Assembly: GCA_963744545.1 (NCBI GenBank) | Contig: CAVUUH010000044.1 | Span: forward strand, 34,140 to 98,139 | DNA from: an uncultured delta proteobacterium | GTDB lineage: Bacteria; Desulfobacterota; Binatia; Binatales; Binataceae | DNA length: 64,000 nucleotides | Reading direction: 5' to 3' | The notes under the pieces: model-generated | Databases searched by the model: none | What the model was told of the DNA's origin: nothing | The model's input: the letters and a program-made list of their open reading frames with translations, nothing else | Part shown: positions 3,081 to 41,812 of the stretch, one piece after another | Layout: every line of letters begins with the position of its first letter | How positions within the stretch are numbered: position 1 is the stretch's first letter | Translations under genes and position numbers: made by a program

Positions 3081-3162
3081 GAAGGCGGGCACGGCGGCCC
3101 GCCCCACTTAAACTTTCACGGCATGCCCCTCCTGAGTGGGGCGGGCCGCCGTGCCCGCCTTC
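3081..3162. repeat. perfect 28-bp inverted repeat with 26-nt spacer, candidate bidirectional terminator
   Basis: gaaggcgggcacggcggcccgccccact (3081-3108) is the exact reverse complement of 3135-3162; each arm contains its own 7-bp hairpin ggcgggc/gcccgcc; lies between convergent genes. Confidence 0.85.
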
Positions 3163-3236
3163 GGTACTGGCGTCATTTGAGGGCCGCTGACAAGGAGTGG
3201 CGTCATTTGCCGGGATGAACCGGAACCAATGCGGGA

Positions 3237-3521
3237 TCAAATGGGACGATAGAAAACCCTAGCCGCGAACCACCCTAACGCTGCGTACAAGACAACATTT
3301 GTTCCAAGCGAGATGACCAGCACCAATAATTGAAAGGCGATAGGGCTGCCAGCAGGTCCCGCCACTCCGATTGGTATTAAGAGTACTACGCCCGGCCAAA
3401 ACAGGAGGGACCAAGCCTCTGCCTCCATCATTGACGGGAAAATATACCCGGCCATGTAAATCCCTATCGGTATCAGCAACCCGACAAGCGCTCCCCAAGC
3501 GGCGGCGTGGCGTGGCTTCAT
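3237..3521 (-). CDS. small integral membrane protein (about 3 TM), passenger gene
   Basis: 94-aa hydrophobic ORF; its ATG overlaps the stop of the upstream 257-aa ORF (ATGA at 3518-3521). Confidence 0.55.
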   Translation of the reverse strand: MKPRHAAAWGALVGLLIPIGIYMAGYIFPSMMEAEAWSLLFWPGVVLLIPIGVAGPAGSPIAFQLLVLVISLGTNVVLYAALGWFAARVFYRPI

Positions 3522-4294
3522 TAAAGATTCTGCAAGAAACTGATCAATCGCTTTTTTTGATCGTCGCTCAACGGCACTGGAATCAGCACCTGAGCGAACT
3601 GCGGTGCATCGTTAGTGATCGGGTCTAACGCGACGTTGAACACCTTGGATTTGAGCGTTTTCGCTTGGCCCGTCTGGATTTCCGGCTTTTCTTGGATTTC
3701 TTCTTCAGATTTCAATTGCGCTTCCTCGTCATGAAGTTCCAGCGTTTCCGGTTCTTCTACTGGCGATTCTAGCTGGTCTTCCGTCGATATACCAGCATAT
3801 GCTAACGAGGCGCGAAAATCCTTCAAAAACCCATCCACGGCCTTCGCATTGAAGTGTTTATCAGCAATCAATTCAGATCGGAGTGTTTGATCCGAAGGAA
3901 TTTTCTTTCCCTTGAAACGATTGAAAAGTTCACGATAAGCCTGAGGCAGTAGCACAGCTTCTCGCAGCGCATTCTTTCCTCGATCCTGATCCGGGAAAAG
4001 CAGAATATTCACGGCGCGTTTGGTCACTACGGCGCGCTCTCCGCGCATTTCGATCAACCCAAATTTTTTCAATCCAGCCAAGACAGACAGGGCATCACCA
4101 TGCGCTTTGTTGAATCCCATGTGCGTGGCTGCTGATTCAATCGTTGACCCTGATTCATGGTCCGCGTCATAGAGCTTTTGCGCCCGCCCAACAGCGGCTT
4201 TCAGGCTCTCGGCAGGATAGGCGGGACTCCTAATCCGCTTCTTTTTAGGGGTCTTCGATGTTCCGCTATTCGATGCGTCTTTCTTAGATTCCAT
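3521..4294 (-). CDS. hypothetical protein, basic N-terminus, acidic linker, no family recognised; passenger gene
   Basis: 257-aa ORF; GAGGA Shine-Dalgarno upstream; near-consensus promoter upstream; translationally coupled to the membrane ORF. Confidence 0.65.
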   Translation of the reverse strand: MESKKDASNSGTSKTPKKKRIRSPAYPAESLKAAVGRAQKLYDADHESGSTIESAATHMGFNKAHGDALSVLAGLKKFGLIEMRGERAVVTKRAVNILLFPDQDRGKNALREAVLLPQAYRELFNRFKGKKIPSDQTLRSELIADKHFNAKAVDGFLKDFRASLAYAGISTEDQLESPVEEPETLELHDEEAQLKSEEEIQEKPEIQTGQAKTLKSKVFNVALDPITNDAPQFAQVLIPVPLSDDQKKRLISFLQNL

Positions 4295-4318
4295 TTTCGG
4301 AGTTTCCTCTGGACGAAG

Positions 4319-4348
4319 ATAATAAGCCTACCTGTCGGTGATAGTCAA
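4319..4348 (-). promoter_or_regulatory. putative sigma-70 promoter for the cargo operon (TTGACT-18-TATTAT on the minus strand)
   Basis: plus-strand agtcaa at 4343-4348 and ataata at 4319-4324, 18-nt spacer; about 25 nt upstream of the ATG at 4294. Confidence 0.45.
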
Positions 4349-4385
4349 GCCGTAGCGATTACGTTAAATTTACGGAGCTTACTGC

Positions 4386-4414
4386 TTGACATCAGTAGGG
4401 CATTACCGTAGAAT
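4386..4414 (+). promoter_or_regulatory. putative sigma-70 promoter (TTGACA-17-TAGAAT) reading toward the transposase
   Basis: ttgaca 4386-4391, 17-nt spacer, tagaat 4409-4414; divergent from the cargo promoter. Confidence 0.5.
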
Positions 4415-4686
4415 CCGGCCATGGAGATTTCGATGAGACTTTCAGTAGCCCCTACGTCCACGTTCACCGACGCGGCGGGCAACAACGAAAAGGCGCGCGC
4501 CCTGTCTGCTGGGGAGCAACAGGGACAACGCGCCGTGGTGAACTTTGAATTTAAGCCGACCGGCGTGAGTGGTTGCACACTCGCGCCGGTCACGTCTCCA
4601 ACGCATCCGAGTTACCGGACGGCATCGAAGTTGGCAATTTCTATTGTCGCCCCGTTCACTCGGCAGAGCAATACATGGGGCTGACA

Positions 4687-5853
4687 ATGAACGTTCTTCC
4701 CTTCGAAAAGCAGACTCAGATCATCGCGGCTCTAACTGAGGGCCTGTCCATCCGATCCGTCGCGCGCCTGTGCGATGTTGAGCGCAACACGATTGGCCGT
4801 CTCGCGCTTCGCATCGGAGAAGGCTGCGAGTCTTTGCATGATCGCACCATGCGCAACCTGCAAGTGAATCTCATCGAGCTGGATGAGCAATGGTCGTATG
4901 TCGCGAAAAAGCAGAAACGCGTCCGACAGGACGATCCCGCCGAAATCGGCGATGCGTGGCTTTTCATCGCGATGGCTGCGACTCAAAAAGCTATCATCAG
5001 CTTCTCAGTCGGAAAGCGCACGCAAGAAAACACATACGCGCTCGCGATGGATTTGCGCCATCGGATCATCAATCGCGCACAGATAACCAGCGACGGCTAC
5101 GCACCGTATATCGGTGCGGTCGAAAACGCGTTCGGCATGAACGTGGATTACGCGATGCTCACGAAACAATATGTCGGCGATTCCAATCTGCCGGATGCGG
5201 CGCATCGCTACAGCCCCGGCCACGTCGCGGGCATCGAAAAGACCGTAATAAGAGGACGCCCCGACAAGGATTTGATCAGCACGTCGTATGTCGAGCGTTT
5301 CAATCTGTCGAGCCGAATGCAGATGCGCCGGTTCACTCGATTGACGAACGGATTCTCAAAGAAGCTGGAAAATCACCGCGCGGCAGTGGCGTTGTGGATT
5401 TGTTTCTACAATTTCTGCCGCGTCCATGAAACGCTGCGCACGACGCCAGCGATGGCGCTGGGGGTGACAGATCATATTTGGACGATCAGTGAGCTAATCG
5501 CAGCCGCGCTTGAGCCTGTGGACGTGCCGCCTCTGCCGAAAGAGCCGGAAACCACACTGCGACCGGGAACGCGCCGATTCAGACTGATCGTCGGAAGTGG
5601 CGGGAAGGGAACTGAACAAACCGCGCTAGTGACTTTTAAGAGCATCGAAGGCGGCCTTGATGATTCGATCTGCGCTCAATATCCCAACGCTTCCAAGAAT
5701 CACGACAGCCAATATTTTAGGAGAAGGGTTAGCTGCCAAGAGCGCGGGAACAAGAAAATACAGAAGGCCCGCGACAACAGCAGCCGCGATCGCAAGACGC
5801 ACCGTCTCCTGACGAGCCGGGACTGCATACGTGTTTTTCGATACCTGGACTAA
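4687..5853 (+). CDS. IS1-family (single-ORF type) DDE transposase; 3' end uncertain
   Basis: 'MNVLPFEKQTQIIAALTEGLSIRSVARL...DEQWSYV...ITSDGYAPY...STSYVERFNLSSRMQMRRFTRLTNGFSKK' matches IS1-type transposases; ATG at 4687; homologues usually end near '...FRLIVGSGG' (about 5620), so the open tail to 5853 may be read-through. Confidence 0.8.
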   Translation: MNVLPFEKQTQIIAALTEGLSIRSVARLCDVERNTIGRLALRIGEGCESLHDRTMRNLQVNLIELDEQWSYVAKKQKRVRQDDPAEIGDAWLFIAMAATQKAIISFSVGKRTQENTYALAMDLRHRIINRAQITSDGYAPYIGAVENAFGMNVDYAMLTKQYVGDSNLPDAAHRYSPGHVAGIEKTVIRGRPDKDLISTSYVERFNLSSRMQMRRFTRLTNGFSKKLENHRAAVALWICFYNFCRVHETLRTTPAMALGVTDHIWTISELIAAALEPVDVPPLPKEPETTLRPGTRRFRLIVGSGGKGTEQTALVTFKSIEGGLDDSICAQYPNASKNHDSQYFRRRVSCQERGNKKIQKARDNSSRDRKTHRLLTSRDCIRVFRYLD

Positions 5854-5985
5854 AGCGGCGGCATTCGTTGGTGACATGTCGGCTAAAACCCGCGCATCAA
5901 TTTTGACGTATTGCTCCGAGACACTGTGTTCGAGTAACACGGCGGTTGGAGGATTTGGGGGATTTGGGTTTCCGTTGTCAGGCAT
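5626..5985 (-). CDS. hypothetical protein with C-terminal TM helices (weak call)
   Basis: 119-aa ORF inside the transposon right end; no clear SD; overlaps the open tail of the transposase ORF. Confidence 0.3.
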   Translation of the reverse strand: MPDNGNPNPPNPPTAVLLEHSVSEQYVKIDARVLADMSPTNAAALVQVSKNTYAVPARQETVRLAIAAAVVAGLLYFLVPALLAANPSPKILAVVILGSVGILSADRIIKAAFDALKSH

Positions 5986-6139
5986 CGGATTCGCGAACGG
6001 TAAAAACAGCGTTGAACGGGTGGCGTCATTTCAGCCCCCAGTGGCGTCTTTTGGCCGAATGACGCCAGTACCCCGCCTTCCTAATGCTTTGACCACCGGC
6101 AAAATCGTCTGATAGCATCCGCGCGCGGAGAGATTTCGG

Positions 6140-34020: not shown

Positions 34021-34089
34021 TTCGGTGGGACCCCCGAATGTCCGTTGTTCCCATTTTGGGAACCGTGCTACTATTTCAAAGTGCGAGTG

Positions 34090-37601: not shown

Positions 37602-39230
37602 TCAGTCCCAATTTTTTAAACTCGGCCAAATCTGCGCCAACGTGCGCCCTCCTCTAGGTTGTGTGCACAAATATATCGTGAAGTGCTCATTTGCCATCGC
37701 GTACTGATTGCCCACCTCGGCCTTCGGTTCGACCTTCGCGTAGCCTTGCTCCAATCGCTCGCGCGACGCGCCGAGCACGATCACACTTTCGCCGCTGTAG
37801 TCTCTCGGGCCCCAATACCAGTAATTGGCGTGGCCGCTGATTGCCTTGGGGAGGCCGATCGCAGGCCCGTAGAAATCTATCGCCCCCGCTTCTCCATAGT
37901 TGCTCCCGATTATCGCCGTTCGTGCCCTCTGGTCGGGCGGCAAATCGTTGTAGACCTCTGCGGTGGCCGCGACCATCTCGGGCCATCCGAACCTATCTGC
38001 GAGGAACTGGGGCAGGTCACTCGACTTGCGATTCTCGAACTTTGGTTCCGAGAACCCTATGAATCGCGTGTACTCGATATACTCGCGAGGAGGCAGCAAC
38101 GGCAGGGTGTTGAGCGCCATCAATGCGCCGGTCACCGCGACCAGACCGACGTACGCTGGCCTCAGCCATCCGCGTCCCGGTCGCCCAGTCCACTTTTCGA
38201 TAACAATGGCTCCTGCGGCCAGCAACATCGGATACGCGGGCGCCAGATAATAAAATCTTCCCGCCGGTGATCAGCAGTAGGAGCAGCGACACCAGGTACG
38301 CATAGCCGAGCGCGCGATACGGCCTGACGCGTCGCTGAACAGAAACGCATACAAGCCGCACAGCCAGATCGGAGCCGCCAGAGGTTGCATGCCCAGCAGT
38401 TGCCACCCGATGAACCCGATCGGACCGATCGCGACGTTGCGCCCGCTACGTCTGATATTCGCAAGCATCTCGAGATGAGGAAAATGATGCTGGATTTGCC
38501 AGATGAGATTCGGCAGGAAGATCGCGAACGCCACCAGCCCGCCCAGGATGAACCATCGGCTCGACATCAAGCGCCGCTGCGCCGTCAGCATCAGGCCGGC
38601 CACCAGCGAGAAGCCGAACACGAGCATCGTGTCCTTGTTCTCGAGCCCGATTCCGGCGAGCACGCCGAACCATACCCACAGCCTGACGTCGCCGGTCTGG
38701 ATCATCCGGATTACGATCATCGCGCATCCCATCCACAGCAGTGGCTCGATCGAATTCATCGACAGATAGCTGCCAAAGCTGAGATAGAACGGAGCAAACA
38801 GCACGGCGAGCGCGGCGAGAGTCTGGGCGAATCGTCCGCCGCCGAGTTGTCGCACGATCGCGCCTGTGATGATGACCAGTCCGGCCGCGGCGATGGCCGG
38901 AAAAATCCGAATCGCGAGAAGCGAATCGCCAAACAGCGCTCTTGCCGCCCATGCCTGCACCGCCGTGAGCGGAGGCATATCGACGTAGCCCCAGCTCAGA
39001 TGCTGCCCGCAGGCCATGAAATAAAGCTCGTCGATAAAAAATCCGTATCCGCCCGGGTTCGGCAGATGAATCGGGAATTCAAGGCAGGCGATATAAGCAA
39101 CGATCGCCGGCCCCGAGACGAACCACTTCGCGCGCGCGTCCGCGCCGCTCCTGACCTGCTCGGCTATTGCAGTTGCCACAGCACTCCCTGCTAACGCGCC
39201 GCCGCGAACGTGGCAACGCCATAACTTCAC
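37602..39230 (-). CDS. family 39 glycosyltransferase (PMT_2/ArnT-like), about 70 nt out of frame between two compensating indels (about 38320 and about 38254)
   Basis: 'FIDELYFMACGQHLSWGYVDMPPL' and multiple TMs (frame of 39230); 'RPYRALGYAYLVSLLLLLITGGK' in the second frame; 'YYLAPAYPMLLAAG...' back in the first frame. Confidence 0.75.
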
Positions 39231-39374
39231 TGCACGCAGGACGTATCAATTGGATTGAGGGCTTTCTCAGTTACCTCGCCCGTTGAGTTAGGCAATTATC
39301 CGGCACCAGACTATCAAGTCGGATTCGTTTATCTTTCTGATCTGACAGGCCGGTGTTCGTCGGGTTACGTTACA

Positions 39375-39536
39375 TTAGCTCTGCTGTTGGGTTTGCTCTG
39401 TCTGAGCGGTCTCTTTTGCCTTGCGGCGACGGTACGACCGCTGCTTCTGCGCCCTGTAGTGGGGATGCGTTTTTTCGTGGTAGTCCCCGCACTTGCGACA
39501 GAAGAAGAACAGAATCTTTTGAGCGTATCGAGTCAT
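39375..39536 (-). CDS. 53-aa basic protein with CxxC...HxxxH zinc-finger-like motif
   Basis: 'MTRYAQKILFFFCRKCGDYHEKTHPHYRAQKQRSYRRRKAK...'; GAGGA SD 8 nt upstream of the ATG at 39534-39536. Confidence 0.4.
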   Translation of the reverse strand: MTRYAQKILFFFCRKCGDYHEKTHPHYRAQKQRSYRRRKAKETAQTEQTQQQS

Positions 39537-39547
39537 GAGTATTTTCC

Positions 39548-39961
39548 TCAGTGTGGTGTGATCAGACACGGACGCGGAATAGTAAGTAGTCCCTCAGGCG
39601 ATTCATGTCGCGAACGCATGAGGGCGCGCATTTGTTCCATTTCTTCGATGCCTCCCATGCGGCTTGGCATGGCTTCAAACAGACTTGCGTCAACCAGTAG
39701 CGAATGTCTACCGACCAGAATGACAACTCCTTTGGGTCCGAACGGTCCGCAACTCGGAGTACCCAACACGTTTGCCGCGACATTATTCATCGGATCGATG
39801 AGAAAGGCCTGTAATTTCCCCGTCACGGCGTCTTTACCGTTCGGGCAATCGGTGCAGAATATGGTCACCCCAGAGACGATGCAGTTGGGCGTAACACCGC
39901 CAATGTCGCGCGGTCCGATTGCGATCCGCACATTTCTACAGAGCATGGCCTTAAGGGCCAT
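39548..39961 (-). CDS. hypothetical protein (about 137 aa), no family recognised
   Basis: minus-strand ORF co-oriented with its neighbours; competing plus-strand ORF 39255..40040 makes the call uncertain. Confidence 0.35.
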   Translation of the reverse strand: MALKAMLCRNVRIAIGPRDIGGVTPNCIVSGVTIFCTDCPNGKDAVTGKLQAFLIDPMNNVAANVLGTPSCGPFGPKGVVILVGRHSLLVDASLFEAMPSRMGGIEEMEQMRALMRSRHESPEGLLTIPRPCLITPH

Positions 39962-39995
39962 CTCCAATTCGCAGGCTAGTTCGTTTGCTTCCGAA

Positions 39996-40277
39996 TCATT
40001 GCCTGTAGTTTCGATGGTAATTGGTCGATTCTGTATCTAAGTACGAAATTATCCTCGAAATATGCCGGTCCCCGTATACGTTGGCTGCTTCCATGAAAGC
40101 TTCTGTTCGGGCCATTTCTTTTTCGACCATTGCCTCATCAATTGTTTCTAGATGTTCAGAAAGTGCGAATTCCATGATCGTGAAGAATTGTTCGCCAATA
40201 ACTCCGATGATGGCCAAGGTCAGAAACAGTTTGCGGTACTTTTTCCATTTATCAGATTTGCCGAACTCTTCTGCCAT
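39996..40277 (-). CDS. hypothetical single-TM protein (93 aa)
   Basis: 'MAEEFGKSDKWKKYRKLFLTLAIIGVIGEQFF...' followed by a helical acidic segment; weak SD. Confidence 0.4.
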   Translation of the reverse strand: MAEEFGKSDKWKKYRKLFLTLAIIGVIGEQFFTIMEFALSEHLETIDEAMVEKEMARTEAFMEAANVYGDRHISRIISYLDTESTNYHRNYRQ

Positions 40278-40342
40278 CCATCCAAAAAAGAAACAACGAA
40301 CCAAACACCAACGTACAAATAACCGACACATTCGAGGCAACA

Positions 40343-40489
40343 ATGGTCGCGGACCTGGATAGTGACAGCAGCGTTCCCATCGATCCCTACGCCTTCGTGC
40401 TCGTTGCGTTCCTAGCCTTGCAAGTGTTGGTGGTCGGGATGGTATTGATTTGGCGCATTTGGAAACGTGATGACCACAATTCCAACTGA
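40343..40489 (+). CDS. possible 48-aa TM peptide (MVADLDSDSSVPIDPYAFVLVAFLALQVLVVGMVLIWRIWKRDDHNSN)
   Basis: hand-translated; GAGG 5 nt before the ATG; divergent from the 93-aa ORF and convergent with the transposase. Confidence 0.2.
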   Translation: MVADLDSDSSVPIDPYAFVLVAFLALQVLVVGMVLIWRIWKRDDHNSN

Positions 40490-40544
40490 ATCGGCTCGCT
40501 GGCGACGTTCTCAGATAGCTGAGACATTCGCCAGTGTTCGTGTC

Positions 40545-41468
40545 TCAGCACCCTCCTATCGCTTTGCCGAATATGTCGGCTTCCTTCCGATTGTTGAATC
40601 GGAATTGAAACTCCGCGAGATACAGCGGCAGATACTTAGCGCTGACATGATGGTACGTACCGATGACCCCGCGCTTGAGCAGCGACCAGAACGATTCCAT
40701 CGTGTTCGTATGGACGATGCCGCGCACGTACTCGCCTTGCGCATGGCCGACAGTCTGATGCGGCAGTCCTTGCCAGCGATCAAGATACTGGTAACCGGAA
40801 TGCTCATCCGTTGCGATCAGCGAGACTTTCTCTTTGTCTACCACTTCATGGACGAAACGATGCATCGTCGGCATATCCGCGCGCTCGATCATCTTGCAGA
40901 CAACGTTGCCTTTGCGGCTGATCGCGCCGATCACTGGAATTTTACCGCCGGTTCCTCGAATGTGTTTTTTCTTGCTGGCGTGTCTGTTCTTATCGAGTCC
41001 GCCCATGTAGGTCTCATCGACTTCGACGATACCCATGAGCTTGCGAAAGTCGGGGTCTTTCATTCCGGCGCGAAGTCTCATGCACATATACCACGCGGTC
41101 TGATACGAGCCGGTTCCGAGCATCCGATGAATTTGAAGTGCGCTGATCCCCTTCTTCGATGTGACCATGAGATGCAGAACCTTGAACCACATAATCAGCG
41201 GCTTCTTAGATTCCTCGAAGATCGTTCCAGTCGTAAGCGCGAACCGATAGGGCGAGCGCGGCTTAGGTCCGCACTTCATGCACTGCCAACGGATAGGGCG
41301 CGTTTTGCTTTCGTATATGTGCTCGTTTTTGCATCGCGGGCAGCGGACGCCAGCGGGCCAGCGGCGCGACAACAGATAATCGCGGCAGGCTTCCTCATTT
41401 GGAAACATCCGATCAAAATCGCTGATCGTCATCTGCCGAACGAATCGGGGTTCTGTCTCGTTGCTCAT
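40545..41468 (-). CDS. IS1595-family transposase
   Basis: N-terminal zinc ribbon 'CPRCKNEH...WQCMKC', 'VEVDETYMGG', 'IATDEHSGY', 'HTNTMESFWSLLKRG..G.YHHVS.KYL..Y..EF.FR.N'; ATG at 41466-41468 (the ORF-track TTG start at 41504 lies within the terminal repeat). Confidence 0.85.
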   Translation of the reverse strand: MSNETEPRFVRQMTISDFDRMFPNEEACRDYLLSRRWPAGVRCPRCKNEHIYESKTRPIRWQCMKCGPKPRSPYRFALTTGTIFEESKKPLIMWFKVLHLMVTSKKGISALQIHRMLGTGSYQTAWYMCMRLRAGMKDPDFRKLMGIVEVDETYMGGLDKNRHASKKKHIRGTGGKIPVIGAISRKGNVVCKMIERADMPTMHRFVHEVVDKEKVSLIATDEHSGYQYLDRWQGLPHQTVGHAQGEYVRGIVHTNTMESFWSLLKRGVIGTYHHVSAKYLPLYLAEFQFRFNNRKEADIFGKAIGGC

Positions 41469-41539
41469 GTTCGATACATTAGCAGCGGACACGTTGTTAG
41501 TCAAGAGCCGGATAATCGCCTTGAGTTAGGGGAGAGGAG

Positions 41540-41812
41540 CTATTCCTCGCCGAAGCGGTCGTCGAAGAGGGTTTGCACTGCTTTCAGGGCTTCGCGGGCG
41601 TCGGTGCCTTCGCATCGGAGCTTTAGCTTCGAGCCTTGGGCGGCGCCGAGCATCATCAGGTTGGTCATGCTCTTGGCGTTGACGAGATCCTCGCCAGTGC
41701 CAATCAAAATCTTCGAAGCGAATTTCGCCGCCGTCTGCGCGAGCGCGGATGCGGCCCGGAGATGAAGTCCGAGCCGGTTCTTAACCTCCACAATCGCCTC
41801 CGCCACGTTCAC
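41540..41812 (-). CDS. ptsH: HPr-family phosphocarrier protein
   Basis: 90 aa; 'VKNRLGLHLRAASALAQTA' with the active-site His. Confidence 0.9.
   Translation of the reverse strand: MNVAEAIVEVKNRLGLHLRAASALAQTAAKFASKILIGTGEDLVNAKSMTNLMMLGAAQGSKLKLRCEGTDAREALKAVQTLFDDRFGEE

Follow-up and report, generated by a model that had tools for sequence, protein, structure and literature searches.

We analysed a 64,000-nucleotide stretch (the window) of contig CAVUUH010000044.1 from an uncultured delta proteobacterium of the Binataceae (GenBank assembly GCA_963744545.1), in which the 2,230-bp segment at 39291-41520 is bounded by two inverted repeats, IRL and IRR, and carries a transposase gene. This segment is very probably a complete transporter insertion sequence (tIS) from the IS1595 family, present in a single copy. 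A tIS is an IS-like element with one transposase, inverted repeats (IRs) and a target-site duplication, plus passenger genes that are not needed for transposition. The element lies between the start of a PMT_2 glycosyltransferase gene (39230) and the stop codon of ptsH (41540), and separates ptsH from this downstream gene. The coordinates of its parts are listed in Table 1.

IRL and IRR match at 17 of 21 positions, and the element ends read GGCAATTAT and GGCGATTAT. Their similarity runs on to 39318, giving 28 nt at 82%, the longest inverted repeat of the region. When the window was scanned for perfect 8-bp direct repeats that directly adjoin inverted repeats matching at 17 or more of 21 positions and spaced 0.7-5 kb apart, the pair that belongs to the element was the only one found, and the same configuration was seen in none of 40 Markov shuffles of the window. 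An independent assembly (L013; ENA ERZ25039553, contig_5288) also has the element at this site, and neither its ends nor its duplication differ.

The longest transposase open reading frame (ORF) encodes 319 aa from a TTG at 41504, and translation likely starts at the ATG at 41468, giving 307 aa. The protein matched the full length of the Pfam model DDE_Tnp_IS1595 (PF12762, ISXO2-like; positions 1-153 of 153, 3.7e-37), as well as Zn_ribbon_IS1595 (PF12760, 7.6e-13) and the NCBIfam model transpos_IS1595 (NF033547, 9.8e-61; 205 bits with a cut-off of 75). In an alignment with 18 relatives, from which conservation was counted out of 19 sequences, the catalytic residues were intact: D163, D233 and R278 were found in 19/19, K277 in 18/19 and E270 in 16/19. 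The zinc-ribbon cysteines C55, C58, C75 and C78 are all present, the first three being conserved in 18-19 of the 19, and E298 and R302 are likewise present and conserved. The gene has no substitutions relative to L013. Four features that mark the IS1595 family were found in this element: the DDE domain, the zinc ribbon, the D-D-E-K spacing with K seven residues after E, and IRs flanked by an 8-bp duplication. The nearest named transposases in the plasmid collection, annotated 'IS1595 family', reach no more than 41% identity, with ISCsp2 and ISPepr2 at about 35%. Because of this distance from any named IS1595-family transposase in that collection, we consider the element a new insertion sequence (IS) of the family.

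A preliminary description of this DNA had proposed a cargo-carrying IS1595-family transposon with 21-bp imperfect terminal repeats, the 8-mer ttgagtta at both ends, about 0.95 kb of transposase in 2.23 kb, and a position between the glycosyltransferase start and the ptsH stop. All of this stands: the family by its Pfam and NCBIfam matches and its intact catalytic and zinc-ribbon residues, the ends by the comparison and scan above, the transposase share by an ORF of 960 bp out of 2,230 bp, and the cargo by the non-transposase genes inside the IRs. Two observations had been named that would speak against the proposal. One, loss of the repeats and the 8-mer in an independent assembly, is contradicted by L013, which has both in identical form. 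The other, unrelated ends on other copies of the transposase, was not seen in the 21 relatives and one paralogue described below, which share the same type of end. A search of the genome for other copies, also suggested there, found this element in single copy and the paralogue, whose transposase is 64% identical, on another contig.

The relatives came from a scan of species-representative genomes that gave 29 loci, mostly in Binataceae or 'delta proteobacterium' soil metagenome-assembled genomes (MAGs) and in some Alphaproteobacteria. Homologous IRs delimited 21 relatives, found in other genomes and in metagenomes, as well as the paralogue in the same genome. The IRs of all of these are of the GG(C/G)(G/A)A(T/G)TAT type; the relatives share GG(C/G)(G/A)ATTATCCGG....AGACTATCA at the IRL end and GG(C/G)GATTATCCGG.TCTTGACTAACA at the IRR end. 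Their 8-bp duplications are perfect in 20 cases and match at 7/8 positions in two more. The relatives measure 1.7-2.7 kb. Each holds roughly 0.7-1.7 kb in addition to its transposase gene, and a bare IS of about 1.1 kb is not among them. The paralogue (C24:253651-255712, L064) is a second complete IS1595-family tIS of 2,062 bp; its 21-bp IRs, GGGGATTATGTTGGGCTTGAC, are perfect, and its duplication reads TTCAGTTA. The paralogue has a different passenger, a 286-aa protein with a signal peptide/transmembrane (TM) segment.

DNA comparison of these elements revealed a conserved backbone in two parts: IRR, the transposase gene and a structured segment occupy element positions 1-1043, and a 53-aa gene occupies 1992-2145. 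Between the two parts lies a variable slot with sharp boundaries at element positions ~1043 and ~1992, and its content differs among elements with a common backbone. The passengers of relatives occur on either strand and are nearly all membrane-anchored proteins without a Pfam family; among those of ten relatives searched against Pfam, only a Laminin_G_3 domain in L027 was found. One metagenome contig, L048, is 98.7% identical at the 3' end of the transposase gene, yet the first half of its passenger gene, encoding the N-terminus, has been replaced. The mosaic structure of L048 points to recombination within the slot. The order of transposase gene, two-TM protein and small gene recurs in metagenome contigs L043-45, L047 and L048. 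Immediately upstream of the L019 element, an opposite-orientation remnant (L019:2857-3768) holds a two-TM module, a 48-aa peptide homologue and a small-gene fragment, which suggests clustered or nested insertions.

Inside the IRs of the element itself are 1,254 bp of non-transposase DNA, including a 276-aa gene. Because slot content varies among elements with the same backbone, we infer that this passenger is dispensable. It is probably a true passenger with no role in transposition. The preliminary description had called this part of about 1.25 kb very AT-rich, with several small ORFs. Its size is as described, but its GC content of 50.2% (with a minimum of 42% at 40000-40300) is only moderately below the 60-62% of the flanks, the transposase gene being at 54%. 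The small ORFs can be seen in this assembly, but they are mostly fragments of the one 276-aa gene that is intact in L013, here split into ORFs at 40252..40380, 39996..40343 and 39548..39967 by one additional A (40284) and one additional T (40029). These two bases are the only differences from L013 inside the element. The ORF at 39548..39967 has one close relative in the database, a 242-aa protein whose sequence extends without a break across two of the window's ORFs. Since the gene is intact in L013 and similar indels split neighbouring genes, we take the two frameshifts to be, most likely, assembly errors.

Seven further one-base indels separate the two assemblies within 12.7 kb, at window positions 34030, 35925, 36146, 38263, 38328, 43027 and 46204. 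They split the PMT_2 glycosyltransferase gene (319 + 208 aa here, 525-542 aa in L013), an MFS transporter gene and others; the PMT_2 and MFS genes are intact in L013. This pattern is consistent with systematic homopolymer/indel errors in the present assembly.

The passenger protein is predicted to begin with a helical hairpin of two TM helices, followed by a coiled-coil stalk and, at the C-terminus, a small alpha/beta domain. The AlphaFold2 (AF2) model built from a seq-alignment of seven sequences had a pLDDT of 67, while single-sequence AF2 prediction (pLDDT 38) was useless. No PDB structure matched the model below E = 0.4 in a Foldseek search, and the protein belongs to no Pfam family; Pfam, NCBIfam and PADLOC searches gave nothing meaningful. 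An exhaustive HMMER search with the passenger returned 46 cluster representatives. About 45 representatives have the N-terminal two-TM module, and most match this module only (45-62% identity) and have different C-termini. Conversely, P0002 has the C-terminal domain in common with the passenger (73%) and a different N-terminus. Judged from these alignments, the passenger protein family is modular. A 48-aa single-TM peptide gene, antisense to the passenger, is possibly a further cargo item. This peptide is 39-68% identical across other elements with the same N-terminal passenger module, and its codon-position differences (0.44/0.29/0.65) have a coding-like pattern that is weak, coming from 35 codons in four sequences only. 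Promoter and terminator scans returned no more than expected by chance.

The second backbone part holds a 53-aa gene whose Cys/His-containing product consists of YAQKILFFFCRKCGDYHEKTHPHYRAQKQR plus a basic tail. Using tblastn, we found this gene in at least 13 elements, where it is the last gene before the transposase-distal IR wherever ends could be mapped. Over 13 elements the differences at the three codon positions are 0.21/0.21/0.46. As third positions vary 2.2 times more than the first two, we regard the ORF as a real gene under purifying selection. Its distribution is patchy, with one to five copies in 11 of 26 genomes of the genus. The protein has no Pfam or NCBIfam match. Only a C-x2-C and one His are invariant, so zinc binding is a guess. 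The chances are about even that the protein is a nucleic-acid-binding accessory or regulatory factor of the element.

The other conserved feature of the backbone is an RNA structure at the transposase stop codon. About 90 nt around the stop are 80-98% identical among elements, where the transposase genes are ~70-76% identical at the DNA level. The TGA stop (40545-40547) lies within the 5' arm of a 9-bp helix (helix 1). In an alignment of 16 sequences, 97.9% of the helix cells were paired, four pairs had changed on both sides and several pairs were G-U; none of 500 shuffles reached this value. The G-U pairs of helix 1 point to a structure formed by transposase-sense RNA. Within the loop, an invariant CUGGCG (40529-40534) is complementary to an invariant CGCCAG downstream (40499-40504). 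These could form an H-type pseudoknot or an alternative hairpin. The helix may act in the control of translation termination, transcript stability or passenger expression. No Rfam family matched anywhere in the element. Extension of the transposase by frameshifting or readthrough through the helix was considered and rejected, as the downstream frames are unconserved beyond the structured segment. Solo copies of the last ~40 nt of the transposase gene plus the helix segment, 86-87% identical, occur elsewhere in the genome (C29:43498-43605 and C26:68081-68156) and were probably left behind by related elements that became truncated.

With the element removed, the insertion site reads CCTCGCCCG-TTGAGTTA-GGGGAGAGG, a hairpin just after ptsH, 2 nt from its stop codon, with the duplication as its 8-nt loop; the uninterrupted site sequence spans cgcccgTTGAGTTAggggagagg. 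The corresponding motif, CCTCTCCCG-N8-CGGGCGAGG, or CCTC(T/G)CCCG-N8-CGGG(C/A)GAGG, resembles repetitive extragenic palindromic (REP) sequences. The same motif, again with the duplication as loop, was found at seven other independent insertions: L018, L020, L021, L022, L036, L016 (in a variant form) and the C24 paralogue. In total, eight of 20 mapped insertions are in the motif loop; the remaining ones lie in different short palindromes or in no palindrome at all. Over the 20 sites, a mean of 3.65 of 6 flanking positions pair, compared with 2.20 +/- 0.27 when flanks were re-paired among sites. As far as the mapped sites tell, insertion into hairpin loops is a preference rather than a strict specificity. 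In this genome the motif occurs uninterrupted 20 times, as a rule with GGCCGCGATGCGGCCGGCCT in front of it, and most of these copies do not lie within long ORFs. The full REP-like repeat can be written as GGCCGCGATGCGGCCGGCCT followed by CCTCTCCCG-TAAAGTAA-CGGGCGAGG-TAA, with a conserved internal T-C mismatch in the stem. Examples are at C37:70638, C15:23544, C43:74664 and C22:42703/43301, and the copy at the element is split between the two hairpin arms of Table 1. Three copies of the target hairpin had no Rfam match.

Insertion into REP sequences is known from IS1397/ISKpn1 (IS3), IS621/ISPa11/ISPpu9/10 (IS110), ISRm22 (IS4) and others (Tobes & Pareja 2006, PMC1525189). The families covered there are IS3, IS110, IS4, IS256 and IS5, and IS1595 is not among these five (PMC1525189). 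None of the papers searched links IS1595 to hairpin targets. Like the REP-targeting ISs, part of the elements described here are found inside repeated extragenic palindromes, with many independent copies at an equivalent position. In contrast, the repeat has only ~20 intact copies per genome, far below classical REPs, and only eight of 20 mapped insertions are in the exact motif.

The insertion looks recent. Between window and L013 there are no substitutions at 39173-41704 and 56 in ~10.2 kb of flanks (0.5%); the probability of seeing none is ~5e-6 at the mean rate and ~6e-3 at the sparser local rate of the left flank. The GC content of the element is 51.8%, compared with 60% for the window, and lies 8-10 points below the host. 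We take the perfect duplication, the lack of substitutions and the low GC content together to suggest a recent arrival. Given loop-specific targeting, it may have spread by homologous recombination between strains or by repeated insertion into the same loop. The preliminary description had also proposed looking for the empty site in relatives; none was found. In the other species of the genus that were searched (G001-G024), ptsH lies apart from the PMT_2 gene (in G007, for example, they are at 1.75 Mb and 2.67 Mb) and there is no hairpin after ptsH. As these genes are at different loci and the hairpin is missing, no empty site exists in these species. The element therefore occupies a synteny junction that is specific to this species and is marked by the hairpin repeat.

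Several observations weigh against a complete tIS. The element is single-copy in a 76%-complete genome, and IRL and IRR are mismatched at 4 of 21 positions. Joined flanks representing the empty site were not found in 40 relatives, and when metagenome contigs were scanned for exact matches to the empty site and to an IRL 30-mer, neither an empty site nor a second location turned up. With a single copy and no empty site or second location, mobility of this copy is something we only infer. As assembled, the passenger gene is frameshifted twice, and reading this as error relies on L013 and on many similar indels in neighbouring genes. Searches with Pfam, NCBIfam, PADLOC and Foldseek assigned no function to the non-transposase genes. 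Elements that lack the 53-aa gene (L018, L020, L021, L027 and the paralogue on C24) keep intact ends and duplications; therefore, this gene is not essential for transposition in the clade.

The single copy, the mismatched ends and the missing empty site, together with the truncated relics on C29 and C26, would also fit a real IS1595-family insertion that is now an immobile relic disrupting the ptsH terminator region, with diverged IRs or a defective transposase. We consider this unlikely, as the transposase ORF has its full length and keeps every conserved catalytic and zinc-ribbon residue, the duplication is perfect, and the element has no substitutions relative to L013 where the flanks differ by 0.5%. 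Moreover, relatives with perfect duplications show the same pattern of mismatches between their ends. An inverted match to IRL at 16 of 21 positions (39983-40003, minus strand, GGCAATGATTCGGAAGCAAAC), a level that only ~15 sequences in the 4.7-Mb genome reach, raises the question of whether two mobile units were fused, a transposase-less cassette at 39291-40003 and a one-ended IS to its right. This is highly improbable. The match is part of the unbroken coding sequence of the 276-aa protein and specifies ...GNDSEAN... at a D-x-E-A motif conserved in the protein family, so we rejected it as a real element end; no duplication flanks it, and homology with relatives does not break there, the backbone/slot boundaries being elsewhere. 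A further reading takes the IRs and the 8-bp repeat for chance resemblances on either side of a transposase gene that is domesticated or stray; it has only the imperfection of the IRs in its favour. The absence of this configuration from all 40 shuffled windows, and the same terminal sequence with 8-bp duplications in ~20 independent elements, refute it and leave it next to no probability. Nor is the element a composite transposon, as it has one transposase gene and one IR pair, with no second copy within or beside it.

For a tIS of this family, the zinc-ribbon/DDE transposase would bind both 21-28-bp IRs, cut the target with an 8-bp stagger and join the element ends, after which gap repair would produce the TTGAGTTA duplication. 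By comparison with the other insertions, the target chosen here is the loop of a REP-like hairpin. The element is built from IRR and the transposase gene, the stop-codon RNA helix and then, in this subclade, the 53-aa gene beside IRL, with the slot between the helix and this gene. In this copy the slot holds the gene for the 276-aa two-TM protein and possibly that for the 48-aa antisense TM peptide.

Table 1. Parts of the element and of its insertion site, in window coordinates.
Feature	Position	Strand	Sequence	Remarks
Hairpin, left arm	39274..39282		CCTCGCCCG	Pairs with 41529-41537 once the element is removed
Target-site duplication, left copy	39283-39290		TTGAGTTA (ttgagtta)	Loop of the target hairpin; identical in L013
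IRL	39291-39311	+	ggcaattatccggcaccagac	Distal to the transposase gene
53-aa gene	39375..39536	-	MTRYAQKILFFFCRKCGDYHEKTHPHYRAQKQR, then basic tail	GAGGA ribosome-binding site 8 nt upstream
Passenger gene (276 aa)	39548..40380	-	Begins MGTLLSLSRSAT	Intact at L013:5899-6729
Candidate 48-aa single-TM peptide gene	40343..40489	+		Divergent from the passenger gene, overlaps its 5' end
Conserved RNA structure at the transposase stop codon	40499..40549	-		Helix 1 pairs 40541-40549 with 40518-40526
IS1595-family transposase gene	40545..41504	-		Pfam and NCBIfam matches
IRR	41500-41520	-	Reverse complement ggcgattatccggctcttgac	Beside the transposase gene; overlaps the first codons of its longest ORF
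Target-site duplication, right copy	41521-41528		TTGAGTTA	Perfect 8-bp match, abuts IRR
Hairpin, right arm	41529..41537		GGGGAGAGG	Ends 2 nt short of the ptsH stop codon (41540-41542)

The kind of element, a tIS in the IS1595 family, is already known, and the hairpin target, the 53-aa gene and the stop-codon helix are details that do not make a new category. The ISNwi1 subgroup of the ISfinder table has ends of the form ggnnatTAT and a DDEK motif with E-R(+4), and includes members with passenger genes; tIS of this subgroup have reportedly been described as such. The GGCnATTAT ends and the D-D-E-K, E-R(+4) pattern of the present element would fit this subgroup. Like IS1595-family tIS, the element has one zinc-ribbon/DDE transposase, short GGnnATTAT IRs, an 8-bp duplication, internal passenger genes and a length of ~2 kb. 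Unlike the named elements of the family, its transposase is too distant from those of the plasmid collection for a close match (see above), and its host, as the relatives indicate, belongs to a Binataceae-like soil MAG lineage. We know of no description of a distal 53-aa gene, a stop-codon RNA helix or hairpin-loop insertion for the IS1595 family. An IS1-family element in the same window (3155-6080) is likewise small, with an 8-bp duplication and cargo. However, its transposase is unrelated, going unmatched in a protein search with the IS1595 transposase, and its flanks differ from the CCTCTCCCG-N8-CGGGCGAGG motif.

A more far-reaching reading is that the clade is a hairpin-loop-targeting carrier with a cassette slot, in which membrane-anchored proteins from many unrelated families are swapped by recombination between a stop-codon RNA pseudoknot or switch and the gene for a 53-aa zinc-binding protein. 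The RNA would couple passenger expression to transposase translation or insulate it from it, and the small protein would be an accessory for recognition of the ends or of the palindromic target. We put this forward as a speculative reading that is rather doubtful as a whole; if true, the clade would be an organised system, not described before, that delivers genes for envelope proteins among soil bacteria.

With tIS, the boundary between insertion sequences and transposons becomes less clear, and not many of these elements have been analysed in detail. For annotation, the lesson is that apparent 'small ORFs' were a single gene split by indels of the assembly. Here, ~20 relatives show the extra DNA in a sharply bounded, exchangeable slot, beside a 53-aa gene and a stop-codon helix that are more conserved than the transposase gene itself, and they show a preference for insertion into the 8-bp loop of a repeated hairpin. 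If bench work bears them out, the conserved small gene and helix and the loop preference would provide possible regulatory parts and a target-selection rule for a family whose transposition has hardly been studied.

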